From assembly GCA_008632985.1 (NCBI GenBank), contig QPGO01000065.1, positions 310,001-374,000 of the forward strand: a stretch of DNA of 64,000 bases, read 5' to 3'. The notes beneath the pieces are model-generated. The model worked only from the letters and a program-made list of their open reading frames with translations. It made no database searches and was not told where the DNA came from. The stretch is from Psammoneis japonica (lineage: Eukaryota). Shown here one piece after another: positions 23,161-56,134 of the stretch. The number at the start of each line of letters is the position of its first letter. Position 1 is the first letter of the stretch. Made by a program: the position numbers and the translations under genes.

Positions 23161-23399
23161 AACCAGTACATACTTCTACTACTGTATCGTACAGTGAACC
23201 GACATCAATGTTTGCACGACCTTTTCGATCCGTCGAAGGATGACTATTCTTTTTATCTTTCCCCCTAATCAGACATACTGAGCTCACCATTACGACGTCA
23301 AGTGCTTGTAGTGGGCCTACGACCAGCCTCTTAGGTGGTTCGCTTGCGCGTCGCTTGGTATTTACCGTATGGCGGGTGATGGTGATAGTACGGCCGGTG

Positions 23400-27995: not shown

Positions 27996-29060
27996 ATGCT
28001 GTCCACCACTCGAGAAATCCTCGTTAAGCATGCCACACGCCGTTCCTACTCGTCGAGTACTGTTCTTCAAGAAAGGCTCGTGATCGCCGTTGGAGGCAAC
28101 GCACTGCAACGTCGTGGTGAGCGCCTAACGATTGAAAACATGCTAAAAGCGTCAGCCGACATGGCGCCCACAATTGCTCAGTTGGCGGCAGAGCATCAAG
28201 TGGTACTGACGCACGGAAATGGTCCTCAAGTCGGTGAACTCGCCTTGGAACGGTCGGCTGCCACTTTTGATATTCTCGGGGCGGAGAGTATGGGCCAAAT
28301 AGGATTTGTACTGGCACAGGCGTTGGCATCCGTGGGGTGTCACGCTGTACCAATTCTGACCCAAGTTGTGGTCGATCAACAAAGTGATGCGTTCAAAAAT
28401 CCAACAAAGTTTGTTGGTCCGATTTATGGAATGAAGGAAGCTCATGCTCTTGCCGAACAGCTGCATTGGACTGTCAAGGCTGACGGGGAATACTATAGAC
28501 GTGTTGTCCCATCTCCGCCACCGCTAGAAATCTTACAACTGGAAGCGATTCGAACCCTCTTGGAAGAGCAACCTGATTGCCTTCCTATTGCATGTGGCGG
28601 CGGCGGAGTTCCTGTGGCTCGAGTCCCATCATGTCCCAGCACGTTGGTTGGTGTCGAGGCAGTCATTGACAAAGACATGTGTGGGGCTCGTCTAGCGGTA
28701 GATCTAGAAGCTGACGGACTCATCATCTTGACAGATGGAGGTGGTATATGGGAGAAGTTCGGCAAACCAGACGCTCGAGAAATGTCAAGTGTCACACCCG
28801 AGTATCTCGAAGGGACCAAGGCTGGCAAGTCCTTTCCTGGAAGTATGGGCCCGAAAATCCAAGCTGCCATTAATTTTGTCAACGAATCAAAGTCTAGTTC
28901 TGCATGGGCCGCTATCGGTGACTTGAAAGACGCAGCAAAGATAATGTCAAATGAGGAAGGCACGTTTGTCAAGAAGGACGTTGAGGGAGGAGTCGTTTGG
29001 AGAGCCGGGAAGTCGGGCCCACAATCTCGACCGACCAAGGAACCTCACAAGTCAGGATGA
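27996..29060 (+). CDS. arcC: Carbamate kinase with probable mitochondrial transit peptide
   Basis: LVIAVGGNAL, LTHGNGPQVG, NPTKFVGP, YRRVVPSP, CGGGGVPV, GVEAVIDKD, GSMGPKI. Confidence 0.95.
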   Translation: MLSTTREILVKHATRRSYSSSTVLQERLVIAVGGNALQRRGERLTIENMLKASADMAPTIAQLAAEHQVVLTHGNGPQVGELALERSAATFDILGAESMGQIGFVLAQALASVGCHAVPILTQVVVDQQSDAFKNPTKFVGPIYGMKEAHALAEQLHWTVKADGEYYRRVVPSPPPLEILQLEAIRTLLEEQPDCLPIACGGGGVPVARVPSCPSTLVGVEAVIDKDMCGARLAVDLEADGLIILTDGGGIWEKFGKPDAREMSSVTPEYLEGTKAGKSFPGSMGPKIQAAINFVNESKSSSAWAAIGDLKDAAKIMSNEEGTFVKKDVEGGVVWRAGKSGPQSRPTKEPHKSG

Positions 29061-29433
29061 AATGAGCTGTTCTTTAATTTGATTGTGCTTCAGCCTGAGA
29101 AGAGAATGGTTTAGTTACATTTTGTTTTGTGCACCCAAAGCGGTAATGTAATTCATAGCTGTGTTGTTATCGATCCACTCTATGAAAGTTTCAATTATTG
29201 CTGGTTTATATTATACAAGAAGAACTATCGTCTACTAACTTGCTTGAGTTCTCGTTCCATCGGCTTCTTCACTCTCACCCGTACGACACAGGCTTCAACT
29301 TCTGGAGAGCTTCCCCCAGACTTTGGCTTTTTTTTTTTGAAATCGCCGCGAAAGGCGCGAAAGCGATGCACACGGTGGGAGGCGCCACGAATTAAAGATA
29401 CAGTATTGTCAACAATGAATGTTAGTTCCAGCA

Positions 29434-29806
29434 CATTCGAAGCGAGAATGCGTGATGTGAGTGTTTGAATTGAAAAAAGGCAGACTACTGTACATACTGT
29501 ACTGTACCATCCACACGATAAAAGTAAAAATTGGCGCCAAGAATTTATACACTACATTTTAAAATTACAGCAGCTCTCTTTTTCTAATTCGTATTCTCAA
29601 CAATGTGTATGTTAAGTTGAGCATTCGAAGCCGAGAATGCAGGCCCGCTACACGATAGGAGGCATCTTTCCATCCATAAAAATTGGCGCCAGGAATGAAT
29701 TGAATTATTATTCACAATGAATTTTGCAGCATACATACAGAAATGTGGGTATTCGAAGCCGAGAAGGCGGGAGTAGATGTGAGTGTTTCAATTGAAAAAA
29801 GGCAGG
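29434..29806. repeat. Degenerate short tandem/dispersed repeat cluster
   Basis: attcgaagc(c)gagaa x3 (~29434, 29623, 29751); gatgtgagtgtttSaattgaaaaaaggcag x2; aaaattggcgcca x2. Confidence 0.7.
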
Positions 29807-30003
29807 CCAGCGCACAGAAGATTTGGCCAGATCATATTCGTCGTCTCGTGATCGATTCTTCTCGTGGTCTTCCGCAGGTGTATCGTCTCACTTCTTCAGC
29901 ATCGACCGCCCTCTCTGCTCGTTAGTAAGGTTGCGGCGCTCTGCGAGACAAGAAGAAGTGCTAACCCCCTTTCTAACGATGCCAAACTGGCGGAGTTATT
30001 ACT

Positions 30004-31356
30004 CCTGGTGGATGCTCTGGATACCTTGTGGCTCATGGGACTCAAGGATGAATTCTACAAGGCGAGGGATTGGGTACGGGATGAATGATTCGTGGCGGGG
30101 CGAGGAGTCTCTGTCTTTGAAACGACAATTCGGAGTTTGGGCGGATTGTTGTCGGCGTATGATTGGTCGGGAGACGAGGCTTTTTTAGACAAGGCGTCGG
30201 ATTAGGAAAGCGATTGTTTAAAGCATTCGACTCACCATCTGGGATTCCCTATGGACAAATCAATTTGGTAACGGGGGCGAAAAGCAATATCGGTTGGGCT
30301 GGAGGCAATGCTATTCTTGCCGAGTTTGGAACATTGCAACTCGAGTTTCGGTACCTTGCCAAGGCCATCAACAAACCAGAATACGCCACAAAAGCAAACA
30401 ACATTTTTGAAATCATGGACAGTGTGTCACCCAAAAATGGACTCTTTCCTTACTATGTCAAGAACCATCAGGATAAACCTGTCTTTGCCAATCAGAAAAT
30501 TACGTTTGGGGCCATGGCGGACAGTTTCTACGAGTACATGCTCAAGGTGTGGTTGCAGGGCGGAAAGACGGAACCGATGTACCGAAAAATGTATGACAAG
30601 GCGATCCAGGGCATGCATGATGAATTGCTACACACGTCAACGCCGTCCGGTCTCACCTACATTGCCGACAAGAATAGTGCTCGTATCGATCACAAGATGG
30701 ACCACTTGGTTTGCTTCATGGGAGGTAAGTCTTTTGCATTTCTCCCGTGTTGTCTGATGCTGGTAGTATTGTTGGTCCTCATTTTCAATCCCATGGCTTG
30801 CTTTCTTGTTTTACGGTTAGGATTGCTCGCGCTTGGAGCCTACACGGACCCGGAAGGCCTTGATTCGGACCGAGCTCAACGCGACCTCAAGACTGGAAAG
30901 GCTCTTACTTACACGTGCTATCAAATGTACGCTCGCATGAACACGGGTATTTCGGCGGAATGGGTTCAGTTCCACCCCGACGAGGACTTTGCGGTTGGTC
31001 ACGGCTCTCATCATTATCTCTTGAGACCGGAAGCGGTCGAGTCCATGTTTATTCTCGATCAACTCACGGGTGATCCAGTGTACCGAGAATGGGGATGGGA
31101 AATATTTTCTGCAATCGAGCGGTGTTGCAAAACCAAGATTGCCTATGGACAGTTGAAAAATGTACAAGACGTGAACGGACCGCCACAAGACAAGATGGAG
31201 TCCTTCTTCTTGGCAGAGACTCTCAAGTATTTGTATTTATTACAGGATCCAGATACACCCGTGGACATTTTAAACAAGCATGTCTTCAATACGGAAGCAC
31301 ATCCAATGCGAATCTTTCCAGTAATTGACAAGGAAGGGAAGCAAGCAGTCAAGTAG
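30004..31356 (+). pseudogene. GH47 alpha-1,2-mannosidase, 5'-truncated copy 2 (intron 30725-30820), with a stop and frameshifts in the first 200 bp
   Basis: Near-identical to the reverse complement of 12727-14088. Indel and TGA at ~30086, 1-nt deletion near 30205. Homology to copy 1 flank continues to ~32075 (vs ~11965). Confidence 0.92.
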
Positions 31357-33449
31357 GCCCTACTCCATACTCTAGTAGATGGCCCTCACGGTAGTACACT
31401 ACGGTGCATTTTTTGACGATGTTGTGTTCAACACAAGAAGAGTCGTCGTCGTTGTATCTGTGTCTCAATCAATATCTACGGAAATGAGATTGGTATGAAA
31501 GTCTTCTTTATGGCAACGTAGAAGATATAATTTATATCCTATGCCCGTATAGCATATAAAATTGAATTTGATTAGTCCGACTGAAAAAAATCGTGATGTA
31601 CCCCCTTTGGAAATTTCAGTCCATCTAATCAAATGATTTTTATGTGTTTCAAAAAACATTAATATATAAGGTATAGAAAGAGCGCGTATGACTTTGAATA
31701 ATAAAAACGCTACAGTAACGAACGTTTTAGATTTGTCATGATGGCGAACACACGCCTACAACCGATAAGATGAACGCGATAGAGCACAAACAAAAAAAAG
31801 GATGCCAGATTGAAGATGCAAGCACCATCAGCATCGCATCGAGAAAAAGCTTACCGGTATGACATTGCGGGCAAGTCGTTCTGTGATTGCAACATTGGCT
31901 TTCAGTTTCGAGACCTGGAACTCGTCCTCCATCAACCAAGAAAAGAAATGGAAGAAGTGTTGAACTTTTGCGGACAAGATTTTGCAAGCACATGGAGCAC
32001 GCATCAACGTCGTCTCGAGCGACAAGACGTGCAACAACAATGCACGGTACCTGCCGCTATTTGCCGTCCAACAACAAGCATGTCTTCAATGCGGAAGCAC
32101 ATCCAATGCGAATCTTTCCAGCAATTGACAAGGATTGTTGTGTTCAACACAAAGAGTCGACTCTCTAAAACAACCACCTGTTCACAAGCACTCATGCACA
32201 CAGCTGCACCTGCCCATTTGCAAGCGCCGAGAGTCAGTCGTTGTCGTTGGGATGTTGATCGACGTGGCGTTTGGGCACTGGTTTTGATTGCCCGAGTCAA
32301 TGCCGGTGAACAATTGTTTTCGTCGTTGCTCAAAACCATTGAGGCCATTTCGTCACAACAAGCCAGAGCATGGGCAACACTTGTTCATTCCCATCGTGCC
32401 ACAGCATTTGCAACAAGACCTTGCAGGGTGTGCCAGAAATTCGAGTGGAGTGCCAGCAGCTGTGCCTTTGGATGCGAATGAAAAGGAAACGCGAGGCATG
32501 CCCGCATCGCATGCACTCAATGACATTCCAGACTTGTGTTCGAGGAGTGTGCTCATGGAGACATCGAACAAACGGGTCTCCCTTGGGCTGGAGGCAGCCA
32601 TGGTTTCTCTCCATTGCACTCATGGGGACCATTTTTTGATGCCGCTGGTTGCGCCTCTTAAGTTCTTGGCATGGCCTTGGGGGAGGTGCGCATGGTGAAT
32701 CTTGGCTGAAGGGCGACAGATGACACTGGGGGCAGGATCCGAACATTCTTTTCTGAATCGCAACGCGTCTTCCAACGGGAGCTTTCGGTCCTTGTTTAGC
32801 ATGTGGATCATGTGTCACTGGACGGTCTTGATGGCATGAACCAAATGACTTCGACAAGTTTGGGTGCGGATGCAGAACAAAAAAAAGAGCTCGATTCCCT
32901 GGGCGAATGCATCATCGCGAAATTGAGCAGCAGCGTGTCGCGTTTCACAGTGCTTTTACGCCATGTTGCTGCACACCGGACCAGAATGATGGAGACATGC
33001 GAGTCGATGCAGTTGCACCTGCTTCTGCCACCACATGCAATCTGCACGCTGCTAACCATCGTGAGGGATGACCAGGGATGACGCTGCGCAAAAGGTGCCA
33101 TCCATGCTCTCTGTACGAGAGGGACTCGGCAAACCTTGATTAATCCATGAATGGCCAACAAGACCAAAACAGCGGACCTGCCAAGTTGCATGCGTTGAAC
33201 GGCGGCATGGACAGCAGCTCCAATGCCTCAGTCAGTCACTCGTCCTGCCAATCTCGGGCGGAAGACTCGTGAGTTTGCAGTTGACAAGGTGGAGATCCGC
33301 AAGACCAGTCAGCAAGCCAATGTTGGGTGAGTGACGTCTCGAGCGAGTGACAAGTGCTCACATCAAGAACGCGAGGCTGGCTTTGCACTCCAATCTTGTT
33401 GGGAAGCGAAGGCGAGTGCAACAGGTGCAGCTTCTCAAAGGCTTGGCAT

Positions 33450-33590
33450 CAGTGTGTCTCGGCAGGCACGGACTTGAGCTGCTTGCAACCAGAGAGACTC
33501 AGTTGTTGAACCTCCGGGAGCCACTTCGCATCTGACGTCAAGGCTGCAATGTCCACATTTGAAAAATCGAGCGAAACATCCTGCCTTGCT
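33450..33590 (-). pseudogene. Possible leucine-rich-repeat fragment
   Basis: VSLDFSNVDIAAL...LPEVQQLSLSGCKQLKSVP fits LxxLxLxxCxxLxxxP. Confidence 0.35.
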
Positions 33591-35198
33591 TGTCGTGTTT
33601 CATTGTGGTGGCCAATCTCGCTCGCGACACGGGCTTGGCCCATGCGGCAAGAGCAAGTGTGGGGCTTGGCACAATTTTGACTCGCTGCAAGTAGAAGTGC
33701 AACACACGTTCAATCCGTTCAATGCGAGATTCTCTTCCATGGTAGAATTGCGGATTGTTGTGCTGTGTTTTGACACACATTGGAGAGCAACACCCGAAAT
33801 CGCAGTGTGGAAGCAGGAAAAAAGAGTTCTTGGCCAAGAGATGTCTTGTTTGGAGAGTGCGAGCTGCTGTCGCCGCCGTTCGAGTCAATGCTTCACCGGG
33901 TTGGGTGAACACTTGCCAAACGTTTTGACTGCTTTTGGTTGCTCTGCCAACCGTCTTTCTTTGTTGTCAAGGCTTTCTCGGCGATCGGATGATCATTGAA
34001 TGGAGGCGTGGGAGGAGGGAGAGGCCAGTGGATCGATTTGTCTGCTGGGACTGCGAGCTTTGTTGGGGTTGGGACATTGAATGGCATCAAGATGGGGCAG
34101 TCGGCCTCGGAGGATTGCATGACCCTCTGAAGGTGCTCGTGGGTTTTGGGTGGTGGACGTGCAGGTCCACCTAGAATCGGGTCGCCACTGTCAGGCAACG
34201 ACCGTGCGTCCCATTCTTGCTTGGGCTCCTGTCCGACGCTTCTGCACTTGGCTACCCAGTGGTCCATTTCTTGTGGAATTTGCGACAAAGAGGGGTGTGG
34301 AAACTTGACTGTTGACCCCATCTTCGAGTGGGGCACTTTTTCGTAATCTTGCTGCTTGCAAACGCATCGTGTCTGGGACCAAGAACGTGAAGCAAATTCC
34401 GATTTCTAAAGCTGCAGCAGCACATGCATTTCGGCAGAGGGGAATGTTGGCGGTTGGGGTGATTTGCCAAGGCTTGGGCACTGTCTGGCTCTCAAGAGGG
34501 ACAAAAGCCTGTTTCTGCATGACTCCGAACCGATGGCGTGACTCTTTTGCATTGAAATGTCGAACCGGGACATCACAAAAGATCTGTGGACACAAACAGC
34601 TCGAAAACCATCATTCCACTTCTCTTGGAGCCCAGTGGATCTGGCCAAATTGATGAAGCAGGGAGTGTGTCATCTCCGTCACGAGGACACCAAGCATGGC
34701 AATGTGGGACCTCTTGCTGTGGCACTTGGTGGCTGGACCGCACTGGACGGGACCGCTGCAACGAAGCAAATGAATGACTCGCAATTGCTTCCTGTTGCCT
34801 TTGTCAGTGACACTGAGTCGCTGTTTTGACGATGAGTGGCACTCTGTGTCGCACATTGTGTCTTGTCAACGAGCGTCTCTAGGTGACAATCAACAGGGTG
34901 CGTGGTGCCAAGCGGTGCATTCTTTGAACACGTGTTCATTTGTGATGATTTCTTGTCATTAATCTGACAATTGTGGAGCTTGTCTTTCATGCTCTCTTCC
35001 TCCCCTGGGATTGCGTGACAGATCGCATGAACTCTCGGAACTGATGGGTTGTGCGACTCGACAGAATCGTCACTGTGAGTCGCACCAACTTAGTGTGGTT
35101 CGGGCATCAGAGACACCAACCTCGTTTGAGTTCTTGGGCGCATTCCGCGATTCCAGAGGCAAGAAAGAAGAACGGTTAGACAAGCTCCACGTAAACCT

Positions 35199-37112
35199 TT
35201 ACAACATCTCACTCTCCATTGCATCCTCCTCCTCTGCGTTCATGGGGTCATTGGTCTTCAATGTTTTGGCTCCAATGCCACGAAGCTTGCACATCCGTTC
35301 ATGTTTCCTCTGGCGTCGGATCTTTTCAATGGACTTCCGTTTCATTGTTTGAATGTTCTTTTTGACATTCTCATTGGACTTGGGAGGGGACCGCTTGAGC
35401 TGATGACGGGGTGTTGGTGCTTTCTTTCGTCGAAGCAACTCAAGAGCGAAAGGATTTGGTTTGCCGGGCTCGTGGAACTCAAGCTTTCTCCTTTTTCTTG
35501 GAGCTTCCTCAGCTTCAATGCAACGTTTCAATGACTTGCGCTCTTCATTCAAAGACGGCTTTTTGGCTTGCGATGAGCTTGTTCCAGGTTGGTCGTGGAG
35601 CGACGGAGTGCTTGTTTCAGGCTGTGTTTGGAGCGGCGGAATCCTGTTGCTTGCTGCGAGAAGTGTTTGGATCATCTCGGCAATCACTGCAATGCTTTCC
35701 ACGGTGCTTTTCTTGGCGGGCATTTTCATCACCAAGTCGTCGTTGCACTCACTCTCTTTGTCTGTGCCATTCAAGCAGGGAGTCGAGAATTCATAAAAAT
35801 TAGGATGATGGGCGCTGAAAATGCCACCGGCATCCCTCCAACAGTGGAGTTTGAAAAGGCTTCTGAAACAGCTCAACTTCTCCTCGTTCTCGACACGGGT
35901 GCGATGTTGTCGGCAAGCGACCTGGATCCTCATGACGGCGGCGACTTTCTTCTCGTGTTTGCAACTCTTCGCAATGAAGCTTTGGAAGGTGACCTGGACA
36001 GTTGCAGCAGCACCGTTCATCATGGCAACTCGCTGCAGGATGTTTCGGAAAGCGCAATGTTTTCGGCAAGCGACCTGGATCCTCACGACGGCGGCGAGTT
36101 TCTTGTCGTGGTTGCGGCGCTTGACAATGAAGCTTTGGAAGGCGACCTGAACAGTTGCAGCAGCAGTGTTCATCGTGGCAACACGTTGTAGGATGTTTCG
36201 AAAAGTGCGCTGGATTGTTTTGAGCGCGTTCACCTTTTCGTTGACCATGTTGAAGGCTGCAGGCACGGAATGGACAATCGTGGTTGACAAAACAGGCGAT
36301 GGAGCCTCGATGAGGGCAATCGGATGGGTGGCGTTCCGGCGGATTGGACGAGCTTGAGTGTTGAGCGTGAAGCTCGCATTGAATGGGAGGGAGGGCGTGC
36401 ACTTTTTCCGATTGAATGCAACGTTGCATCTTTGGTTGGGTGTTTCCACATTTGTGGCGAAGTCGCATGTTGACAGCTCGAGGATCGCCATCACATCGAT
36501 GGATGGACCCGAGGACGTGTTGCTGTGCTTGAGTAAAACATTCGCTTGAACGCCTGGAGCGAAAATACGAAGCTTCTTCTTGAGGTTGTCAATCACGACT
36601 TCTTCGAAATCGTCAGGACGCGAGTCGGAGGAGGAAGGCTTGAACACAAGCTCAACGAGAACCGAGTTTGTAGAACAAGAAATGGCAGCACCATGGATCA
36701 TGCCAGACACAGCAGCAACCATTTTCTGCGTGCAGGTGGGAAGGATTTCCGCAACGGCTTGCGCAGTGGCTTCGTTGGCGGCGGCAGGAAAAACGCAGAT
36801 TTTCTCAACACGAGTCTTGACCACAAAACGAGCAAGATTCTGAACGCAACATTTGAACCAAGGTGCGGTCAACCCAATGAAGAAGACAGTGTTGCCATTG
36901 GAGTGCGGAACAATCGAAAGAACTTCTTGAACAGTTGGGGCCAGATCAAGTTGAAACGTGCCGACTTGTTCATCGTCGAAAAGCTTCTTCGAAATCGACT
37001 TCAAAGCAACGAAAACCGAGAATGCGGCAATGTCAACATTGCCGATAAAAGCAACGCCACCGGCAAGGATGGTCGCAAAGAGAACAATAAAGATCATGAG
37101 GGAGAGCGACAT
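35199..37112 (-). CDS. 637-aa ORF with IQ-like calmodulin-binding repeats, hypermutated (probably a non-functional copy)
   Basis: ATG start, hydrophobic N-terminus, IQRTFR, VQVAFQSF, IQVACRKH, VQVTFQSF, IQVACRQHR; internal ~135-bp duplication; only 1 Tyr in 637 aa. Confidence 0.7.
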   Translation of the reverse strand: MSLSLMIFIVLFATILAGGVAFIGNVDIAAFSVFVALKSISKKLFDDEQVGTFQLDLAPTVQEVLSIVPHSNGNTVFFIGLTAPWFKCCVQNLARFVVKTRVEKICVFPAAANEATAQAVAEILPTCTQKMVAAVSGMIHGAAISCSTNSVLVELVFKPSSSDSRPDDFEEVVIDNLKKKLRIFAPGVQANVLLKHSNTSSGPSIDVMAILELSTCDFATNVETPNQRCNVAFNRKKCTPSLPFNASFTLNTQARPIRRNATHPIALIEAPSPVLSTTIVHSVPAAFNMVNEKVNALKTIQRTFRNILQRVATMNTAAATVQVAFQSFIVKRRNHDKKLAAVVRIQVACRKHCAFRNILQRVAMMNGAAATVQVTFQSFIAKSCKHEKKVAAVMRIQVACRQHRTRVENEEKLSCFRSLFKLHCWRDAGGIFSAHHPNFYEFSTPCLNGTDKESECNDDLVMKMPAKKSTVESIAVIAEMIQTLLAASNRIPPLQTQPETSTPSLHDQPGTSSSQAKKPSLNEERKSLKRCIEAEEAPRKRRKLEFHEPGKPNPFALELLRRKKAPTPRHQLKRSPPKSNENVKKNIQTMKRKSIEKIRRQRKHERMCKLRGIGAKTLKTNDPMNAEEEDAMESEML

Positions 37113-37635
37113 GGTTGATGCTTGATGATGACAAAAGACGAGTTGTCCGTTTTGTGAGATGGAGTGGGAAAGCGCAAAGCGTGGAAGATGATATGAGCAC
37201 TGGTGGCTACGTGGTTTCTACGTAGGTCCCAGAGATCACAAAACCGGGACACGTTTTTTTTCTGTTATATCGAAACCTGACCAAAACACCGTTTAGCATC
37301 CCTCGGCGCCAATGTCAACACCGTTTCGGAGACTCATGACGTGATCAACTGTTGCGATACCGACAGGTGATGATTTGTACTATTGGTGCTTCCTACGTGT
37401 TATCGTCTTACAACTTCTACTACCACAACAACTCAGGTCGAATGTTCTCGGTATCATTGCCCTACAAATAGCTACGTACTCTAGAGAGTACAACTCTTTC
37501 AAACTTTTGCTACCGGTATGCACAGTGCGCGCGGAGTGGGGATAGAGTCGTCGCGTCGTATCTGTGTCTCAATCAATATCTCCGGAAATGAGATTGGTAT
37601 GAAAGTCTTCTTTCTTGGCAACGTAGAAGATATAG

Positions 37636-39540
37636 TCTGGATCTCCATTGTCAGCTTTTCGCTTTGTTTTTGCAACCACTGGCGTTCCTTCTCAGCGTCA
37701 ATCAATCCCGAGAGCGGCAAATTCGCTTTAACGCCATCTTGGACTGCGATCTTAACAGACTCGCCAATCTCCATCGTTTCTTTGGCATCTTTACTTCCAG
37801 CTGCATGCACAGCTACCTTATCCGGGTCGAGCTTAGCAAGAGCAACAAGAGATTTGAGCTCTGTTTCAATGTCCTCAAGCAGATCTTCACTCGCGACTAC
37901 AGTCGCCCTGATTCGCTCCCCGACTTAACGTTGTACTCAGCCCTCGTGTTACGGATACTTCGAATAAGAGCCTGAAAACATTCGAAAGTTCTTACAGCTT
38001 CCATCCGAGGTCAATCCGCAAGTCTCAGTCACGTAAGGCATTTAGGGGTGTAGCAGACGCAAACTCGTGTCCAAAACACAGACAAGAACGCGTCGAGTGG
38101 CTTTAGCGTCCTCTTTTTTCGCCTGCTCCTGCTCCTTCGTAAAGGTGAGTCTTCGAAATTTCAACTTACCAGTCTGCATATTGATTCCACAAAAAACCCA
38201 TAGAATTGTAAAAACAATGAGCGGTGTCTCAGTTAGATAACAGCCATTTCCAGATTCGTTGTCTGTCTTTAGAAGCTCACCTTGCTTCCAGCAGCCACTA
38301 TCTGGTACCTCTCGATTTCATCCGTCACCAAAACCACAAGACGATGGCATGTCGTGATGATATAGCGTTCCGGTAGAGAAAGAGCATTGAATTCTTCTTC
38401 TGTCATCGGTCCATCTACACTCCGCTCAGATAAGTTCGATTCGCTCAAGTCTCTCAGAGCGCTGCCCTTTACAAACTTGCAACAATTCCAAAGCTTTTTG
38501 GCAAAATTACGATTGGCCTCGATCTTCTCCATGTTGAGTGGAATATGTTGTCCCGGCGTGACATCGCCACCCCGCGGGGCTCTGGGCTGCCATCGGTGGA
38601 AGGTATCGAACTCAGGTTGCTGAGGCAGGTATGGAGCTGGTAGTCATCAATCTTGTCCTCCTTACTGGCCACAGCTACTCCTGTCACCGCTTCCTATTGG
38701 GGGGCATCCAACAATCCAAAGAAATCGGTGATTTGGCAGGGTTTCTTGTTCTTGTCGTAGCAAGGACCACTGTCCGTCGGCTAGGACAGCGTCGCGGTCT
38801 CGACATGTCTTCGATCCCAGCTGAAGTGACGGTTCAGTCACACGACACCTACGTACTAGTACAACCACAGAAAGCAGCGATCGCGACGGCGTTGGATGCT
38901 AAGCTCATAACAGCGACCTGGGGGGTCGGGTTTGTGTCGTGTGTTTTTTTTCTCACGGATCCTCACGGATCCTCACGAATCCTCAGTCATCCTCATGGAA
39001 ATTTTGAAATTTTCAATGACTTTTCACGTACATTGTACGAAGGAATCGGAATTTAGAGAATGACTCTTTGCATTGACCGTTGATTTCTCGTACGTAGATT
39101 TATACCATGTGGATTCATGTGGATGACTGAGAAAATGACCGTTTTGTCAATTGAATGACTTTCTCTCGTACTTTATACGAAGCAAACGCAGTATATGAAA
39201 ATGACTTTTTGTAATTATGACCTTGCTCCGCCCTACTCAGTTCCGCTCGTAGATTTGTAGGAAGAGGATCCATGAGAATCCATGAGGAAAGTGTCAACTG
39301 ACAGCAAACGTAACAAAGAGCAATGACCCTTCTTCCCTCCTTTAAGTGTAGAAATGTCTTCCCTCCTCTATGTAGAAATGTCTCGACCGTTCCGTACAGT
39401 ACTTGTACAAACAGTGCCGTGGCTCATCTGAATAACGAAAGCGCTGTGCGTCCTGCGTCCAACATGCAGGCAGTGATTGTGTTTCGTTGGCAAGTTGCTG
39501 GTTTCCTTCTGGGCTTCTGAGTGTCCCATTCTCAGCACCC
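37636..39540 (-). repeat. Segmental duplication copy C, including ValRS fragment 37636-38562
   Basis: Direct copy of 21392-23160. Shares with copy A (inverted) the extension gtgcgtcctgcgtccaacatgcaggcagtga that is absent from B. Confidence 0.95.
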
Positions 39541-40139
39541 TCAGGAAACCCCACTCGAGACGAAACTCGATGTTAACAACTAAAACGGCGAGGTTAGGAA
39601 AGCACCTCGATGAAAAAGACAAGCCAAGAACCTTGGCGGGGCGCCAAGCAAACAACAGGCCCCTTGGTTAGGAAAGCACCAAGTTAAGAAAGCCCCGAGT
39701 TTTTCATGTTAATCGTAAAAAACATTGAACATGGCTGTAGTAAGAGCTGACGGGCTAATAACAACCTGCACGGGGCCCCCCAAGGGTACCACAGGCATCA
39801 GCACTCCTTCTTGTTGACGACCGTGCCGTTGTGAGGGAGCATGAGTCATCAGACCGCAAATCTGATGGTGACCAGCATTCAACATACCTTGGATAGTGCA
39901 ATAGAAAGACTAAATAAGACGATCTTTAGTTGCGTTTAACGTATTCCATGCGCATGTCGATGGACAGAGATGACGGTCGTAGGGCTTCTTGTAGCATGTG
40001 AGTGGGGGGGGGGGGTGAAATTTGGTGGCGGTGCAATGACGATCCGGATCGGAGTCGTGAAAGCAGGAATGGGGTGGACCGAGTCATTATTGGACGCCAT
40101 GAGTGGCAACAAGGGCGGTCTCAATGTTCCATCAACTTC

Positions 40140-40395: not shown

Positions 40396-42580
40396 ACCCC
40401 TGTGCGAATCTCTCGGATGTGCTCAAGTCTTCCGTTGTGCAAGTTGTACCAAGACATACAATGCAAAGTTACCTGGGTCTCTAACGTCCCCCCAAAAGAC
40501 ATTTCCTGTGCCAGAAGATATCATGTGTCCGATCGAATCTTCGGTCGAAGACAGGGTCTGCCGAATAAAGGCACAAGGATGTTTGCGTCGCCTTGTCCGG
40601 AGCGGAACAGACCGAGGACCAAGGAAGCTACCTTGAACAATCAGAACGGTAAAATGCAACAAATCCAAACAATTCAAATAGAACTGGAATTGAACCGTTC
40701 GCAGCAACGACACCTGTGATATCCCCGTGTCCCACCTCTCAGCCACAATTTGTTCGCCCCAGATCAATGACAACTGTAATCATAAAGATCTCGGGCGGAT
40801 TCCGGGGAAACGGTGGAAAGATCATGCGTTGACCAAAAGAAAGATAAAATTCCAAAGCATCGACTGGGAAGTCCAAATTTTGATTTTGGACCCTTGCTCT
40901 GCCAGAATCGAGGTGCAAGTCATGAACTGGGTCCAATGCTTGTTGTGGTCGCAATGAGTGACCTCGAAGCAACATCTCAAGATCCCAAATTTCCTTGCAT
41001 GCTCTGAAGACTGATCTAATGCAATCTTTCAATCAAAAGCATGTTTCCATCGGATGCTACAGGCCACAGATGCGTGCTGATCTTCGAACGGCCGGGAACC
41101 GGGAACTCCAGTGCGTCTGTTCGCGCACTCGAGCAAGATAGCCTCCAGTACAGTGTACAGTATGTTTGATGAGCCCCGGTGTTCCTTACAATCTCCTCAG
41201 CTTTCGCTTTGATCCGAGCGTCAAAGCATCCATCTGCATCGTAGAATTGCTTGATCTTGTTCATCTGCTTTTCACAAACGCCTCCATTTTGCTTTATTGA
41301 AGTGTCGGCAGGTTGATCGCACAAAAAAGCAAGAATAGAAGAATCTTGTCCAGCATCGCTTCTGGCAGTGTCAACAGAATAAAGGGAGTAGTTGACGTGG
41401 AGGCATCGGTATTCGGTATCCATACCGGGAGGAGTCGCCGTGCCCGTATCCATGCCAGCCGCGGGACGCATCTTCATGGTCGCATGATAATGGGAGCCCG
41501 TACTCCGAATATATCTGAAGGTGCCCAACTTTTCCTTTTCCTTCGATTTTTCTGCGTTCAAGGCAACATCATGAGAATGTCCGAATGTGTCATTAGTCTT
41601 GGTAGCCTGGAGAATGCGCAAAAGGTTGCACAACATACAAAAAAGGCTGCGGTAGAAGCAGCGGGGGCCGCGGCGGCGGATGGCAGGCGAGGACAAACCA
41701 GAAAGCGAAGAGGAACCGCAGGGCGAGTAAAGACCGCAGCACTATCCCGTGATATTTGTATCAATAAAGAAGACTTTTAATCTCGACATAGGAAATCGAA
41801 GCTCAAAAAAGTGTCGTGATACTGTAGAACATGGGTAGATGACACGCCGCGATATGCCAACTAGCTAGTAGTGGGGATAGCCTTCTTCGACCCTGGACAC
41901 GAGGTCGCGAGGAGGTTGCGACAAAGGTCTCCGACTTCAGTCTCACGATACGGCATGGCACCCATCTGATGTTACTTGCTTTGCTTGTTGATTGATTGGA
42001 TCTCTAGAGTAGAGACCATCTTGGCGGAGAACAGTAGCGGCACACAACATGGCTTGCACACGGTGGCAAGCGCACTCTCGACTTTACCCGTCTCCGACTT
42101 ACAATCATGACAGCAGGAGACTGCAAACTTCTAGAACACATCTCTCCTCTGCAGTAGAAGAGAATTCATGGCATGGAAAATTGTAGGAGCGTCGAAGCGC
42201 CGCTTCAGCGCATGACAATGCCAAGCGTCATGGCTGGTGTTGGTGTTGCGTCGCTTCGAAGCGTGCGAAAGCACAAGTGCGCGGAGCGGAGGCGGACGGG
42301 GGTCTGACGTTGGAGGGAGTTTTTTCGAAATCAAACTCACGTAGAAGTTTTCGTCTTTTTCGTACTGATCGTGACGTCAAGGATTTCTCCACCTGCCGGC
42401 CGGCTCGCCGCTGAGCTAGAGTACCACACACCCACGTCGGTTGCGCCGTACAAACAAGCCGAACATACACACGGCGCGGTCGTGTGTCGTGTTGCTTTTG
42501 ATTTCGCCGCGCGTGCTCCTCTTTTTCGTCGTGGTGTCAAAATACTGTACTCATTACACTCCGCCTCTCTCTCTTTCACC

Positions 42581-45500
42581 ATGGAGCCACCCGCTAAGAA
42601 AAGAAAGCGTTTATTCATCGACACGGATGGGCTGCGTGCGTTAATTCCAGCGTCGGAAATTCGTAGGCATATACAATCGGAAGCAGCCGCGGCATCCGCA
42701 CCGACTGTACCCAATGCACAAGCCACCAACAATGCTGCTGCTGCTGCTCGTGTTGCTTCAAATCAGAATACCAACGACGGCGGTACGATTCACCAAGAAC
42801 CGCAAAAACAGAAAGAAGATCTCGTCACCCTGATGGTTCCATCTGGCCGTCTCGGAATATCAGTACGCGTCGCGGATAATAATGATTCTTCTCTGATTGT
42901 ATCACGTGTGAACCCTTCGAGTGTGATGCATGGTAAATTGCACGAGGGAGATACTATTGTTTCGCTCCACGGCAGTGCTATACCCAAAGATGTATTTGAC
43001 GTGCACCGCCTGTTGCAATCGTCAATGCATAAGCCTGGTGAATGGACCGTATCAAGATCAACAAGGTCAAGTCAAAGTTCCGAGAGGAAGAATCAAAAAG
43101 AAGAAGAGACTGGTGCTACAGCCGCTGTTTCGACGACTACGACTAGTAATGCTTCTGTATCTACGACGCAGGCTGTCACAAATGTTCAATCGCAGCCTCC
43201 GCCCACTCCTCAAATACAAGCCCAATCGATCAGTACCACGGATCACGCGCCTCCTCAGCGGAGGGAGTCGATTTCGACGCAGATTGATTTCTTGCTGGAA
43301 AACGCGCCCACCGCCACCAACAACGATACGTTGAATAGATCACCGCAGCAAGAAGACCATATTAACGACACTGCCATGGAGGACACGCAAGAGGAAGGTA
43401 TCCTTGGGGAACATATTGCTGATAAAGAACAAGAAGTTCAAGAAACGGGTTCTTTTTCGCAAGAGACGACTGCAAGCATTCCGGTTCCACCGACCGCATC
43501 AAGTGAAACAAGTGTCGATGGAACACAAGACGAGTACGAACTATCTCACCAAGACTCGCAGTATCGGGAAGTGAGCGAGCCAATTCAAGAAGGCAGGACG
43601 GAAATGTCTGTTTCTCCAACTCCATCATCGCAACGTCCGAGTTTGATTCGTGATGATCCTGATTGGATTCTACTCAAGCAGCGTGTTGAAAACTCCATTA
43701 TCAAGGCTGAAGAAAAGTGGCTCATGGAAAAAATCGATCGAGACATTATCAAAGCCGAAGAACGGGATTTGATGGACAGGATTGATCAATACATTCTTGC
43801 AGCCGAACGGGCTCCTTCTCCACCGCCACCGCCATTGCCACCCTATGTCGGAAGTAAAGTAATGGACTTGTGTACTTACCAAGAGGGTCAGCAACAGGAC
43901 TCGTCTACGGAGATTGATTTTGTTTGGACTACAACAAAGGTGACAGAAGCTGATCGCCACAAGAAAGCACGTGATACTAACGACTCGTTGGAGGTACTTC
44001 ACGATGGCAGGGGCGGGCGTGTCTTAGACCTGGAACACGAAGACATGGTCGTGGTCCAGGCTCACAAGATTTTGCCGCGATACATTCCAGGCACGGACAG
44101 GCTCTTGCTGCCGCACCATGCATTACAAACGGGGGTAGTGGATTGGTTGAACGCCCGCAAGCCGTCTTGGGGAGACAAGGTTGTTTTCCACATCAACGAT
44201 GCTCCTGGGGGAGACGAGGGGTCTATTTCACTGTATGTTCAAGCTCGACGACGTGTCGTAGAGCAGATCAAGGAACGAGTCAATATCATCATGAAGCAGA
44301 ATCTTCAAAACCATAATTTGGACTTGCTTGTGTCCGACTTGGACAATTTGGAAATTGAGCTGAAATGGAAGCTTGGCCCGGAGCTCTCTACAGTGTATGT
44401 TCCCGAGAGGTGTGCAGACGGATCGATTCGTGCGGAGGGGGTGGCCCTATCTAACAAGGAGGATGAGAATCTGGAACTTGTCGACATTCTAGGCGACGAC
44501 GCACTCGAGTCTCTTGCGGCTATTCTTCGGGTAGACAACCGGTCGGTAGCGACGCCAGAGCGTTTGCAAACACTACTGCAAGACGCCGTCAGACGAGAGG
44601 CGAAGTATGTCAAGTTGTCGCTCTGTTTGAGCAAACACGCCAGGTTGAAGCATCTCGATATAAGGGCACACTTGTGGCCCAATTCTTCTATTCAGAGGAG
44701 AGGCGACATTGATGTCTTTGCAACAGACTCTTCTTTCGAAGATGAGGACCTTGGCGTTGATGCGTGGCTCCATAATACAAGTGCGAGTAGCTTACCGTCA
44801 CTCAGCAGGGACAAGCAGCATTCTCCCGAACCGGAAAAGCTGTCGTCATACAATTCCTTTACGAAAAAGTATGATCAAGTCAAGGATATCGAGTATGGCG
44901 CTTCGAAAATCCACATTCAGTTCGTCAACAGGTACGCTCGTACTGCGTTGGTGGGGTGATGTACTCGGCAGCTTTGTATTGTCGAAATTCTGACGTTTTC
45001 GTCTGCAAACCTCTATCTTTCTCTTTTTAGTCGAATGTGGAAACAGCACAAGCGTTTAGGCTTTGGTACCAGCTGTAGTGACGAATGCCCGTGTGTGGAA
45101 CGGCTGGCGTCCTTGACAGAGACCATCATTCCCGAATATCTGGCAGAACAAGAGAGCAAGCATGCTGCGGATAGGCAACCTCTGGATTTGAAGGCGGGGG
45201 ACTTTCTGGTGGGATTCACAAACAACTTCGCGCCACGGGTAAGTACAGCGTTAAGATTCAGTCGATTACTTGCAATGATTTGCAAACGACTCAAATTGGT
45301 TACCCGTTTGCAGTTCTTCCCGAAACTTCGTGAGGAGTATCCCCAAGAGAGCCATGCACAGATCCTTCGCCGTTTGGAAAATATGTGGGCCGTGCATAAG
45401 CGAAATCGCAAGTACGGTCTGGTCTGCAAAATGTCTTGCAGCTGCAGGGAAGGTTGGGATCGCGTTTTCAACAAGGGGGAACAGTCGACACACGAAGTGG

Positions 45501-48500
45501 AAATTCAAGAATCCACTGAGAAGCAAGAGGGCGAAGGCAGCAATGCCGCAACTTCGATTCCAAGAATTCAAAGGAAATCGTCTGTGGAAATGACTCCCAC
45601 CCCTGCTTTGCAATACAAAAAAAGACCCCCTATTTCCGACGCTCCCCAGCGGTCACTGAACAAGGTTACACAGGAGAGTGGCCTTGTCGTTTCTGGGAAA
45701 ATGGAAAGGAACCCCAAGAGCTCCAAGGACACTACGTCTGCTAAAACCGCTTCTCATCAGAAAGAATACTCCGTGACGTTTGACCCACAAGAGCCCTTGG
45801 GTTTCTACTGCATTACTGAGAAGAAGGGATCAGAAGAAGTCTGTAAGATAACCTCGGTGAATCCTCATAAGAAGGATGCGGATGTTCGACTTCGAACGGG
45901 TACCATTGCCGTGGCTGCTTCCATTCTGAAAGGATCGACAAAAGTCCCAAATCCCACTGAGATACGCTCGTCCTGGGACCTGAAGGGAATTTACGACGAT
46001 GCACGAGACCTGCATGGTGCAAAGCTGCATATCTCGTTCATCAATTCCGACGTGAAGGCTTCGGCTTATTCCTCGACAAGGTTCAACAAGGACTGGAAGA
46101 TAAACGGGGTTTGGCAAGGTAAAGCGGGGACAAAGGGTTGGCCAGGTGGGGCTTTGACGAAAAGAGCTGCAGAACCAAAAACAAGGAGCAGTTCGCCAAT
46201 AGGGGGCGAGATCAAACCCATCGCCTCTGGCATCCTGGATTCGAGAACTGAGTCGGACAAACAGGCCGACACTGCACCTCTAGCTACCGAAGTGGTCCGC
46301 CTCCGAAGCAGGCCGTTGCCGTCGAAGGATCTAAGTCCAGGCCCATCGCTTTTACGTGCATCAAGGTTGGGAAGACAAGCTAGTGAAAGAACTCGTATTA
46401 CGGGCACTTCGCTGACGGTGCAGGTAGGGGCTGTATCCCGGAGTTCAAGGAACGTGCGTTTTGTTGACAATTCGGAATTCGAGATTATGTTGTATCAGAC
46501 AGGCAGCAATAGCACGGACTTCTTGGCGACAACAGCGGAAGCGTCTTCACTAGATGTGTTACGTAAAATCGTCCCCGAAGCAAGTATAAATCAAGAGCAC
46601 CAAGATTTGCACGAAGGAGAGCTCATGCAAGCCGCTGGTGAGCAGAGCTATGACGAAGTCGTTAGGATTCTCTATGAAGGTGTCGCAAAAAGTGAAGTAG
46701 ATGAGGCAAAGAGGTTTGTAGGCAACCTGATATCGAGCCTTGAGAGCCGCGTAGGAACTCAGAGTCAAGAGGAGAAGCAGAAGCTTATCGATGCGCATTT
46801 GAAAATGAAAGCGTTGAAGATATTCCTGCAATCAAAACACGCTGTGGACAAGGCTCGAAACGCAAAGAAGGTTGTTCGTTACAACTTCCAGATTCAGAGA
46901 CTGGAAAATCTTCAGCTAACCGAAAAGGGACACAAGCATGGCTCTTCGAACGTGTTGACTTGTAGTACGAGCGTGATCAACGGTGGTCACCAAATAGATC
47001 TAAAGCCGGCAATGCCTCATGCACCTCTTTCGAGGACGATAGACTGGGTTTCAATGGGGGTAATCCCTACTTACGACGTCAGCTGCAACAAGTACTTGGA
47101 ATCCGACCGTCGTAAGGAAATTGCCATTGTGTTGAAAAAAGGCGATGGTCACTCAAGTGGAGCGGTTAGATTGGGTAGAATCGTTATTCCCGTCACAAGT
47201 ATCCCGGAAAGAGATTTCAATGAGGAAGGGGTATTGTCTTTCGATGTCGTGGGTAGTGAGCATCTTTCCGGTGGCCAGGCAAAGATCAAGTTCTCTCGCA
47301 AACTTGCAGATGAAAGTTACATCAAACAGAAGAAAATGGATATTAGGAGAGACATCTCGAAAGCGGTGGATTGGCTCGAACAGTTCTGCTCTGAAACGGA
47401 AGAAGACGACTCCGTGAAACACATGGTCGGTAACATCAAGGCATCAGATGGAACAGGGTTCTCTCTGCTGCATGCCGCAGTGTCTGTTGCAGATGCTAAC
47501 TTAGTGGAGAGGCTGCTGAAGCTCGGTGCGGACCCGAAAGCAAGGGGTGAATCTGGATCCGCTATATACATGGCATCGAATATGGAAAAAATTCTAAAGG
47601 TGCTTGTTCCCGGCAACGAAGACGAGACCAACGAAGCACAAATTGACGACGAAAGCGAAACCAGGATGGAGGACCTTACAGGGGGGGCGACTTCATCAGC
47701 CTTTAGCAGAATGGGTGACGCCGGTAGTCTGACGCACCATACTTTGGAAAATCAGCAGTCAGGCGAGCCAGAGAAAGAAAACATTCCCACTGAGGAGCAC
47801 ACAAACGACTCGGACTCTCGGAATGTTCGGGGTAACACGAGTGCCCTACCAGACTCAGGTGGAAAAGTCAGTCCTGTGCCGCCGCGGGTCGATGATTCGA
47901 AGGCTGCGCCAGCGCGTCCGGAGGCTTTGGCCGGTGATGATTCGTCGGTGAGTCCGCCAGCAGCTTCCGATCACAGCCACGACGCCAGTGATTGCCCAGC
48001 GCGATCGCCACATTCAGACGAGCTCCCTCTTCTTGCAGACAAAGATTGGATGGTGCCAAAGAAGAAGAAGAAGACATGCGTCTTTTTCAATCGGCCGCGT
48101 GGGTGCTGGCATGGACATGAATGTCGCAATCGACACGTCCGACCTCTTCTTGGTTCCTCTCTAGACCGCGAAGGAAACTCAATTTCCGGCAATCCAGCAT
48201 GCTTGGACCAGAAGGGAATTAGCATATTGCGAAGGAAAATGTCGAGAGGTCTGACGTGGATTTCGGCAGGTTATGAAGACCCAGGGGATAAAACGATTTA
48301 CTATGCCGAGGGTGGCGGGAGTTCCCGCCGGAGTCACCAAGATGTGTTTTGGTATCCAAACGAGGCAGATGCTACGGAAGCACTGGCAAGAGTAGTGACG
48401 GTATGGAATCGCCTGAATGGAACTGATGCTCTACATAAGAAACCATCAAACAGAGGGAGGATGGCTTCAGAATCGCAGGACTACTACGGGCCTGGAGTGT

Positions 48501-49858
48501 CATTGTCGTCCACGAATTCTCGTTCCTCCAATGGGGTCTCATCACCGGACTACTACGGGCCTAAAGTGTCATTGTCATCCACGAATTCTCGTTCCTCCGA
48601 TGGGGTCTCATCACCATCGGACTCTCGTGATAGACACACTCCTCCCTTTTCCAAGCCGGGCAATCACTACATGCGCCGAACTTCCGCATCGGAAGGGAGA
48701 AAGCCTTCTTTGGAGTCTTCTAGTTCTCATGAAGTATCAAAGAGGCGTTCTCCGGTCAGCTCGGACGCGAAGGGTTACTACGCACCGGAAGCATCAATAA
48801 CGCAGAGGAGAAGGCGATCCTCCGAGTCGCAGCTGTACGATTCTTCGTCATCATTTGGAGACGGAAGTCAGTGGTCTCGGCCCCACTCACCCCACTTATC
48901 CTCGCCACCAAAAAGACACGAGCTTCCTACTCTCAACGATGTTGATTGGATGTCATCAGGCAAGGATAGACGGTGTTTATTTTTCAACAGTGCAAAGGGA
49001 TGCAAGAATGGGCACAGGTGTAGATATGAACACATCAAGTCTTCGCTCGGTTCCATACTTGACGTCGTCGAAGGGCAGAGACCATATCCAAGTGTAAACC
49101 TTGACGATGGGGGCATTTGTCTGGAACGCATGGAGGATAGTCGCGGAAGACTCTGGATGACGGCTGCATACAAAGATCCAACTGATAATTGTATCTATTA
49201 CGCAGAACGAGGTGCTAACTCGTTTCAGAGCAGTCAAGGTATATACTGGTATCCTGAGGAAACTGATGCGTTGGATGCATTGCGAAATGTGGTAGCTGTT
49301 TGGCGGTTTGGACGGGATGGGAGGCACGTTGACCCGACACAAGCTTCTACATCAGCACCAAGAAGGCCGTCGCTGGAGCAACATGACCCGCCGTACCAGC
49401 CTGCACTCAAGCGACCTCGACTTGAAGAAGAGCGCAAGAGCCCTGATCATTTCATTCACAACCGTGTAATGCAGGATACATTTCGTCAGTTGCTAGATTC
49501 TTCGAACTACTCGCCTTGTCACCAAAAAGTTGCTGGAAGCCCACTGAAGAGGGAATACTGGCATGTCAGGTCCAAAGATGACCAGTTTACTGCCCGTTTT
49601 TATTGTCCGCAGGGCGCAATGCAAGGAGATTACCTTTCCAATGCAAATTTTGATGGCATCTTAAATAACAATTATTGGTGGCATAAGGACGAACGCAGTG
49701 CCAAGGCGAGCGCTTTCCTTCGCTTCCTTGAAGTTGCTGCGGAGAAAGGCATTGTTGACAGGGATTTGGCGCACACGTGCGAGGGAAAGCCCCTATTTTC
49801 TTCAGGGAATGCTCCTGGTCACTCGAGCAAGTTCCACATGGATGAGGGAATCCTATGA
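42581..49858 (+). CDS. Large (~2,370 aa) multidomain protein: PDZ, two HMG-like/CxxxCxC repeats, second PDZ-like region, possible C2-like region, ankyrin repeat, two CCCH zinc fingers each followed by a duplicated dsRBD-like module; introns 44932-45030 and probably 45239-45313
   Basis: VTLMVPSGRLGISV...IVSRVNPSSVMHGKLHEGDTIVSLHG (PDZ); GFSLLHAAVSVADANLVERLLKLGADP (ankyrin); CVFFNRPRGCWHGHECRNRH and CLFFNSAKGCKNGHRCRYEH (CCCH). The GT-AG introns keep the frame. Confidence 0.85.
48479..48617 (+). repeat. In-frame 69-bp coding tandem duplication (DYYGPxVSLSSTNSRSSxGVSSP x2)
   Basis: gactactacgggcct at 48479 and 48548. Confidence 0.9.
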
Positions 49859-54348: not shown

Positions 54349-54895
54349 GCAATAAAACAACTAGAGGGACGGATGGTCGCTTCCCGATACGTTCCTTCTA
54401 CTGAATCGCACTATGAGAACCCCTTTTTCGATTCGGCACTGACACTGACTACCGCTCACGATCCGTTCAAATCCAACTTTTTCGTTTCGCTAATTTTTCC
54501 CGTTGGAATTCACCAACACAAGTTACTGCCTTTGTTCGTCTTCACTATTCTGGAAGGACGCTCTCAAGTTGCCGCTTACAGTAGTGCATTAATTCCTATG
54601 TAGAGAGTCTCCATGTGCATTGAGAGGTTACGGTACAGTGCTCAGATAGATCCGCCCGATCGAAATGACACCCAGCTGAACGCATCACCCGTATCACCAG
54701 CTGCCAAGGCGGAGATTTCATACCAAAGGATTACGTAGAATCCTACGTACTAGGCTTCTGCGGATATTTCCGTGGCAGAAAAAGCATACGTCAGGAATGA
54801 AGATCTACTAAGTAATGTTTACGTGGCATTGCAGTTGCAAATCCCATAGTCGTCAGACTATCGCCCTACACGGATTACCGTGATTATCACCCATA

Positions 54896-55800: not shown

Positions 55801-56134
55801 ATGTGAAGGGGCACAACGCTGCTTCAACTTGCGCTGATGTGTCTCTCACCTTCACTCCCTGACCACCAGGGAGCTTCTGCCCAGCTCCCAATTTCCAAGT
55901 GCACAACAAGTTGTGCTGCTTCTTCAATCCATGGCAGAACCAAGTTTTCAACTGCTTCATTCAGTGCTGCTCTGGTTGTGTGGATGAGGGACAGAGCTTC
56001 GTTGCCTCTCTGAAAATTGTCGAGTGGGCTGTTCTGCATCCCGCGCTGATGCTCAACTCAGCAGGCCTTTTCTCAAGCTTGCTTTCCACTGCCTTCAAGG
56101 TGTTGCCAACCTTGTGGCCCCATTTCTCCTCAGT

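Follow-up and report, generated by a model that had tools for sequence, protein, structure and literature searches.

A 637-codon open reading frame (ORF) in a 64,000-nucleotide stretch of DNA from Psammoneis japonica (assembly GCA_008632985.1, contig QPGO01000065.1, positions 310,001 to 374,000 of the forward strand; hereafter, the window, whose own numbering is used throughout) encodes only one tyrosine (Tyr) residue. The ORF runs from ATG to TAA on the minus strand at positions 35199 to 37112, and its predicted product is an orphan. We consider it likely that this ORF lies in a chromosomal domain of 5.3 kb in which the dinucleotide TpA has been converted in situ, almost to saturation, to TpG or CpA by transition, a hypermutation of the kind reported in the chlorarachniophyte alga Bigelowiella natans (Mettrop et al., bioRxiv 10.64898/2026.01.13.699255), here in a diatom-like genome. 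TpA transitions would have struck both strands equally across this domain and would have erased the Tyr codons, of which about 18 are expected at the window background and 1 remains, because TAY is the only family of sense codons that starts with TA. The only stop codon attainable by such stripping is TGA from TAA, and the frame is therefore never broken.

TpA-stripped blocks and the direction of TpA loss

The window contains four sharp-edged TpA-free blocks (positions 1 to 2500, 10033 to 12183, 31860 to 37190, and 55000 to 64000), in which the observed/expected (o/e) ratio of TpA is 0.05 to 0.12, compared with about 0.6 in the rest of the window; some 5 to 10% of the TpA dinucleotides persist within them. 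The block around the 637-codon ORF (31860 to 37190; 5.3 kb) retains 29 TpA in 5331 nucleotides (o/e 0.092) and is enriched in CA (o/e 1.50) and TG (o/e 1.37), whereas its flanks have TpA o/e ratios of 0.68 (29000 to 31859) and 0.66 (37191 to 40000). When the interval from 32001 to 37000 is divided into ten 500-bp windows, TpA o/e is 0.04 to 0.17 in every one of them; the mean of the CA and TG ratios across this interval ranges from 1.22 to 1.65 and stays below 1.52 over the 637-codon ORF, the cut-offs of the preprint being quantiles specific to the B. natans genome that do not carry over to this one. The depletion is alike in all codon frames and in the noncoding parts of the block. Its right edge is close to the start of the ORF: the leader from the ATG to the edge (37113 to 37191, minus strand) is TpA-free, and upstream of the ATG (37112) TpA reappears at 37192, at a distance of 80 bp, and is of normal density from there on, as an earlier reading of this DNA from the sequence alone (the sequence-only reading) had noticed. 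The block lacks the CpG depletion expected of CpG-methylation decay, its CpG o/e being a normal 0.86 (1.03 over the ORF).

The direction of the change is recorded in segmental duplicates inside the window, which serve as internal controls. A second copy of two fragments from the 3' region of the gene for the glycoside hydrolase family 47 (GH47) mannosidase (originals at 31273 to 31334 and 31420 to 31436) is found inside the stripped block at 32073 to 32152 (plus strand). The 62-bp repeat at 32073 to 32134 differs from its original, 31273 to 31334, at two positions, one TA>TG and one TA>CA. Since the original agrees with a third copy at 12749 to 12810, both changes are polarized, and both are TA>TG/CA. 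A copy of 31439 to 31538 lies at 37544 to 37643 (plus strand) and, together with 32073 to 32152, brackets positions 32153 to 37543, which, from this arrangement, appear to be an insertion into the duplicated GH47 3' region. The stripped zone, 31860 to 37190, is shifted about 300 bp to the left of this insert; therefore, the TpA-poor composition did not simply come with it.

The unit consisting of GH47, a block, and valyl-tRNA synthetase (ValRS) is present twice in the window, in inverted orientation and with a different TpA-free filler in each copy. The sister block (10033 to 12183), which occupies the equivalent place in the inverted duplicate, has 15 TpA in 2151 nucleotides (o/e 0.116), and its contents are unrelated to those of the block at 31860 to 37190, save for a common segment (11965 to 12183, corresponding to 32075 to 31860). 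The flank of the sister block, at 9600 to 10032, shows a graded one-way loss of TpA relative to its paralogue at 20750 to 21185. At the 36 TpA sites of the paralogue, the block-adjacent copy has TG at 9, has CA at 9, and keeps TpA at 16, with no reversals, and 20 of the 26 substituted columns of this 433-bp flank are TA-related. Farther from the sister block, none of the 21 TpA in the following 500 bp is converted, and 3 of 22 are converted in the final 466 bp. At two positions (one of them within the 9600 to 10032 flank) the paralogues disagree, one having CA and the other TG, as expected where an ancestral TA was resolved independently in each copy. The stripping acted after duplication of segments that are now 95 to 97% identical; the window's duplicated segments themselves (95 to 98% identical) are TpA-normal, and the stripped parts lie elsewhere. 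TpA loss is mutational, has occurred in situ, and is directional. The sequence-only reading had deduced a TA>TG/CA process from the composition of this DNA, and the polarized paralogue comparisons, together with the excess of CA and TG in the block, bear this out.

The segmental duplications are nested (7832 to 14087, 20750 to 23173, 30004 to 32075, and 37636 to 39523; 95 to 98.5% identity); besides the two inverted GH47-block-ValRS units, they include the ValRS 3' segment in a third copy. The ValRS copy that starts at 37636 has lost the end of the C-terminal coiled coil at the breakpoint and is probably a truncated pseudogene. A single N is found at 22673, in the third copy of the duplicated segment.

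The stripped blocks are of two kinds. Two of them are depleted of TpA only (10033 to 12183 and 31860 to 37190), and two are depleted of both TpA and CpG (1 to 2500, CpG o/e 0.25; 55000 to 64000, CpG o/e 0.09), the low CpG being of the classical decay type. The 9-kb block at the right end of the window (TpA o/e 0.05, CA and TG o/e 1.6 to 2.0, strong AT skew) carries a satellite array at 57375 to 64000, with 31 units of about 190 bp found that are about 70% alike, and stripped DNA around it (55000 to 57400 and 62000 to 63050). A GC-rich (58 to 61%) tandem repeat of about 190 bp at 3864 to 5089 has the reverse bias, with TpA o/e of 1.1 to 1.2, ApT of 0.33, and CpG of 0.45.

The 637-codon reading frame

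The ORF, which has no introns, is a genuine coding sequence for a protein of unassigned family, and its true frame is recognizable by length and by composition of the codon positions. It contains no in-frame stops, whereas over this 1.9 kb the other five frames have 90 among their 3186 codons; at the stop rate of those frames, the chance of 637 open codons is about 1e-8. First-order Markov simulation of the block (500 runs) gave a longest open frame of 216 codons on average and of 409 at most, so that the observed open length (663 codons inside the block, 672 from stop to stop) was reached in none of them. Base composition at each codon position is like that of the window genes, with purine-rich first positions, and the combined content of cysteine (Cys) and histidine (His) is 5.3%, as in ordinary ORFs, whereas the spurious ORFs of TpA-free blocks average 10.7%. 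The other 3.3 kb of the block contain no ORF exceeding chance. Codon-usage correlation with the window ORFs is uninformative, as wrong frames (r of 0.26 to 0.46) score no differently from 11 of the window ORFs (0.18 to 0.48), although the ORF itself gives an r of 0.06.

The single Tyr, which the sequence-only reading had counted correctly, is encoded by TAT at codon 440, within the string FYEF. The ORF has 9 TpA in 1914 nucleotides, one of them within the TAA stop codon. Three of the block's few remaining TpA fall within 25 bp (35177 to 35201), at or just past that stop. The comparison set consisted of the 12 longest ORFs of TpA-normal window DNA (5962 amino acids), of which 5 score above a Pfam gathering cut-off, one more (Myb-like) falls just below it, and the others are unverified. 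Tyr accounts for 0.16% of the residues in the ORF and 2.73% in this set (probability of at most 1 Tyr in 637 residues, 4e-7). The residual versus expected TpA counts at the three codon phases are 2 (the one Tyr codon and the stop) versus 17.9, 2 versus 20.3, and 5 versus 28.3; therefore, Tyr codons have not been spared relative to positions where synonymous escape is available. At most one Tyr is likewise encoded in 51 of the 53 stop-to-stop ORFs of at least 100 codons within the blocks but in only 36 of the 118 that lie elsewhere. The loss of Tyr belongs to the DNA block as a whole and is not special to the 637-codon ORF; it is automatic, because in TpA-free DNA every frame lacks TAY. The missing Tyr residues were presumably turned into Cys and His. 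Phenylalanine (Phe) is elevated, at 5.18% versus 3.09% (P = 0.003); the protein could have been Phe-rich from the start or could have been adjusted afterwards.

The consequences of stripping for codons were simulated by full TA>TG/CA conversion of 12 window ORFs, with 20 runs each. None of the 240 runs produced a new in-frame stop, and the commonest residue changes were Y>C (20.4%) and Y>H (20.0%), together 40% of all changes. The proposal that Tyr would be recoded to Cys or His without creation of stops, so that the frame stays open, unlike in fungal repeat-induced point mutation (RIP), thus agrees with the simulation. Two further consequences expected by the sequence-only reading did not materialize. 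Amino acid identity after full stripping was 91.5 to 96.2%, that is, just 4 to 8% of residues are altered; therefore, stripping by itself cannot make a protein unrecognizable and cannot be the cause of orphan status. Nor are gene predictions inflated: in the window, the density of ORFs of at least 100 codons is 2.79 per kb where the DNA is stripped and 2.62 per kb where it is normal. The share of stop trinucleotides decreases from 3.55% in normal to 2.75% in stripped DNA, but random ORFs are barely lengthened and the density of long ORFs is not raised, because TGA increases from 1.79% to 2.41%. Stripped blocks do contain several ORFs of 201 to 348 codons with 0 or 1 Tyr and 9 to 19% Cys plus His (62202 to 63248 on the plus strand; 56916 to 57521, 54858 to 55508, and 35800 to 36468 on the minus strand). 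These have the appearance of products of TG/CA-rich noncoding sequence and might be taken in error for Cys/His-rich orphan genes.

Judging by its sequence, the ORF product consists of an N-terminal hydrophobic helix (residues 3 to 23; 37044 to 37106, minus strand), a mixed region some 260 residues long, two IQ-like repeats, and a tail rich in Ser, Pro, Lys, and Arg. The Lys/Arg-rich part of this tail (approximately residues 520 to 611; 35280 to 35555, minus strand) includes basic clusters, such as PRKRRK, that may resemble nuclear localization signals. The AlphaFold2 single-sequence model is poor (mean predicted local distance difference test [pLDDT] score of 40, predicted template modeling [pTM] score of 0.26), with pLDDT values above 60 solely in the N-terminal helix and one C-terminal helix. 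The repeats are two tandem units of 153 nucleotides (51 codons; 35901 to 36206, minus strand) that contain the strings IQVACRKHC and IQVACRQHR, both of which had been picked out by the sequence-only reading. They share 86% DNA identity, with 21 mismatches (9, 3, and 9 at the three codon positions) and 12 of 51 residues different. The KHC/QHR difference pairs TGC with CGC (Arg), which is a change between CpG and TpG, so the suggestion that this Cys replaced an aromatic IQ residue does not hold.

The match to the IQ family is too weak for assignment. The Pfam IQ model PF00612 scores 6.8 bits against residues 290 to 421, under its gathering cut-off of 20.3, and a Pfam search with the whole ORF gave nothing at E values of ≤0.1 and no IQ match at ≤1. 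HMMER searches against 1.84 billion representative sequences gave two marginal matches, to an IQ-repeat protein (E = 6e-4) and to a repetitive sequence (E = 9e-4). The former, P0001, is a bona fide six-IQ protein, to which residues 307 to 418 of the ORF align at 29% identity (E value of 6e-4 library-wide and 4e-13 pairwise). Since P0001 contains Tyr and nevertheless has Cys in one repeat where IQVACR has its C, the reading of that C as a Tyr footprint is not supported. A word-indexed search of proteins of near length yielded no match at E values of ≤1e-3 among 8000 candidates, an exact look-up did not find the ORF sequence in the protein collection searched, and the ESM Atlas gave no usable match. 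None of the 160 pattern matches in metagenome contigs or of the 10 in viral contigs was confirmed. A scan of the window with purine/pyrimidine-collapsed 30-mers, which should detect transition-masked paralogues, returned a single chance-level match. Pfam searches found no match in the other 3.3 kb of the block and no reverse transcriptase or retroelement among the block ORFs.

Two ORFs of the plus strand in TpA-normal DNA, encoding 862 (42371 to 44959) and 1607 (45035 to 49858) amino acids, also have no Pfam family. The longer one contains a 69-bp tandem duplication at 48478 to 48615 and gave weak ankyrin-like leads only, in the ESM Atlas.

Competing explanations

Several alternatives to in situ hypermutation have to be weighed. 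A very improbable one is that TpA bases, heavily modified in some chromatin domains, were systematically miscalled as TG or CA in a long-read assembly and that the real DNA keeps both TA and the Tyr codons. The change is strictly motif-bound and blockwise, and motif-bound miscalls can occur at methylated sites; however, 5 to 10% of TpA survive within the blocks, the near flank of the sister block keeps 16 of its 36 TpA and has a graded edge, other blocks of the window show classical CpG decay too, and, according to the preprint, the same signature was seen in B. natans from Illumina mutation-accumulation lines (bioRxiv 10.64898/2026.01.13.699255). It is likewise improbable, if slightly less so, that the block represents viral or other foreign DNA that was already TpA-poor on arrival, or that TpA was removed by selection, such as avoidance of UpA in RNA. 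The contents of the block lack relatives, the window holds no paralogue of them, positions 32153 to 37543 are bracketed in the manner of an insertion, and the targets of the process in B. natans are largely foreign DNA, as far as the preprint describes them (bioRxiv 10.64898/2026.01.13.699255). Foreign origin of the composition is contradicted by the offset between the stripped zone and the insert, as this zone covers duplicated host sequence (31860 to 32152) with TA>TG/CA changes polarized by two other copies, and by the TpA loss around the sister block, which grades into a host paralogue. Depletion that is equal in all frames and in noncoding parts is unlike the outcome of selection on RNA.

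The remaining alternative concerns the state of the ORF, which might be a living, expressed gene under regional TpA hypermutation whose product selection has reshaped so that it functions without Tyr, for example, by Phe assuming the Tyr roles. We regard this as a minority possibility. The intact frame, in a block whose other 3.3 kb hold no ORF beyond chance, would fit a living gene, as would the elevated Phe alongside normal Cys plus His, the small number of second-position changes between the repeat units (although the 9, 3, 9 distribution is not significant), and the position of the block edge 80 bp upstream of the ATG, a possible place for a transcript start. However, Tyr codons are unprotected compared with synonymous TpA sites, no homologues were found in the collections searched, and an intact frame is expected of a relic too, since TA>TG/CA mutation makes no stops and cannot close it. 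We therefore lean, without great confidence, toward the ORF being a neutral relic that is still open rather than a working gene.

Several observations weigh against in situ hypermutation as the origin of the Tyr-poor ORF. The searches described above revealed no unmutated homologue in any collection, and thus none from which an individual Y>C or Y>H change of the ORF could be read. The sequence-only reading described the protein as Cys/His-rich, which is true of Cys (2.83% versus 1.59% in the 12-ORF set; P = 0.015) but not of His (2.51% versus 3.00%), and the sum of the two is half that of spurious block ORFs. The total of Cys, His, and Tyr is 5.5% in the ORF versus 7.3% in the set, and TGY and CAY codons show no excess over the window ORFs (at codon phase 1-2, TG frequency is 0.031 versus 0.027, and CA frequency is 0.068 versus 0.073). 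Among the 21 mismatches between the tandem units, just one is of the TA/TG type, and the approximately 190-bp satellite of the right-end stripped block gives no clear signal, with mixed CA/TG columns in 3 column pairs, compared with 0 to 3 for seven control pairs. The flank comparison has no outgroup, and its direction is read from the 18:0 asymmetry and the discordant site. Finally, unlike the B. natans targets as the preprint presents them, the block has no sign of foreign origin, with no relative in viral or metagenome contigs and no viral or transposon-type Pfam family at E values of ≤0.1 in the ORF and 13 other block ORFs; as a mere absence of matches, this is weak evidence.

Related systems and implications

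The closest known counterpart is B. natans, in which foreign DNA, including integrated viral DNA, is subject to regional TpA>TpG/CpA hypermutation (Mettrop et al., bioRxiv 10.64898/2026.01.13.699255). In two integrated viral regions, according to that preprint, nearly all de novo mutations are TpA>TpG/CpA, arising some 1000-fold above the background rate; the genome contains 324 low-TpA coding sequences and 124 clusters of stripped 1-kb windows, and 78 of the 96 genes in these clusters are unannotated. An ADAT2-like deaminase acting on adenine was proposed there, without proof, and, by analogy, a deaminase-type enzyme may be behind the stripping described here. The P. japonica blocks resemble those of B. 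natans, as reported, in that TA changes only to TG or CA, on both strands and in kilobase blocks with a gain of CpA and TpG, and in that most "genes" within such blocks are unannotated. The same changes dominate, with both polarized differences being of this type and 18 TA>TG/CA changes against no reversals in the sister-block flank. De novo events are documented for B. natans only, whereas spreading into the flank and events polarized by paralogues are seen here and not in the text of the preprint, the main text of which does not mention tyrosine, stop codons, or missense changes. The sequence-only reading independently deduced a real mutational system that is already in print for another lineage.

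Three other systems share some features with the window. In fungi, RIP converts C to T at CpA in repeats, makes TpA and stops, and leaks into adjoining unique DNA. As with RIP, the process described here is a blockwise, dinucleotide-bound transition hypermutation that reaches some hundred base pairs into its neighbors; unlike RIP, which makes TpA and stops and needs repeats, it destroys TpA, and the duplicated segments of the window are TpA-normal and not stripped. A-to-I hyperediting of the ADAR type has a 5' U preference, as noted in the Discussion of the preprint (bioRxiv 10.64898/2026.01.13.699255), and similarly involves clustered A>G changes in the 5'-TA context on both strands. However, the ADAR substrate is double-stranded RNA, whereas the change here is fixed in chromosomal DNA, including nonrepeated flanks, and the block contains no retroelement. 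With respect to the calmodulin-binding IQ repeats (PF00612), the ORF resembles a six-IQ protein over residues 307 to 418 and yet stays under the family cut-off.

Two proteins encoded in the window bear on the taxon. Its carbamate kinase is 69% identical to that of B. natans, 72 to 74% identical to those of named diatoms, and 84% identical to that of one further assembly, and the best named matches of its GH47 mannosidase are all from diatoms, followed by other ochrophytes and oomycetes. By these two sequences, TpA hypermutation probably extends to a diatom. Our search of the openly accessible literature found no description of TpA-stripped blocks in diatoms.

For genome annotation, the practical rule is that in such blocks all frames are Tyr-free and spurious ORFs contain about 11% Cys and His, so that a true frame is recognized by being long and having an ordinary Cys plus His content. 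To the text of the preprint, the window adds a paralogue record of the direction of change, a 1:1 outcome of TG and CA, and a decaying spread over about 400 bp from the block edge. If the taxon assignment holds, blockwise TpA>TpG/CpA hypermutation, first reported, as far as we can tell, in that 2026 preprint, also occurs in P. japonica and hence in a second algal lineage, distant from the first. A bolder view, which we consider unlikely, is that TpA-directed hypermutation is no peculiarity of chlorarachniophytes but a wider system of the stramenopile-alveolate-rhizarian (SAR) lineage that is active in diatoms, also hits nonviral single-copy DNA, and leaks into adjacent host DNA, with the 637-codon ORF still functional and Tyr-free. 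Proteins would then be remodeled (Tyr out; Cys, His, and Phe in; no stops) as well as inactivated.

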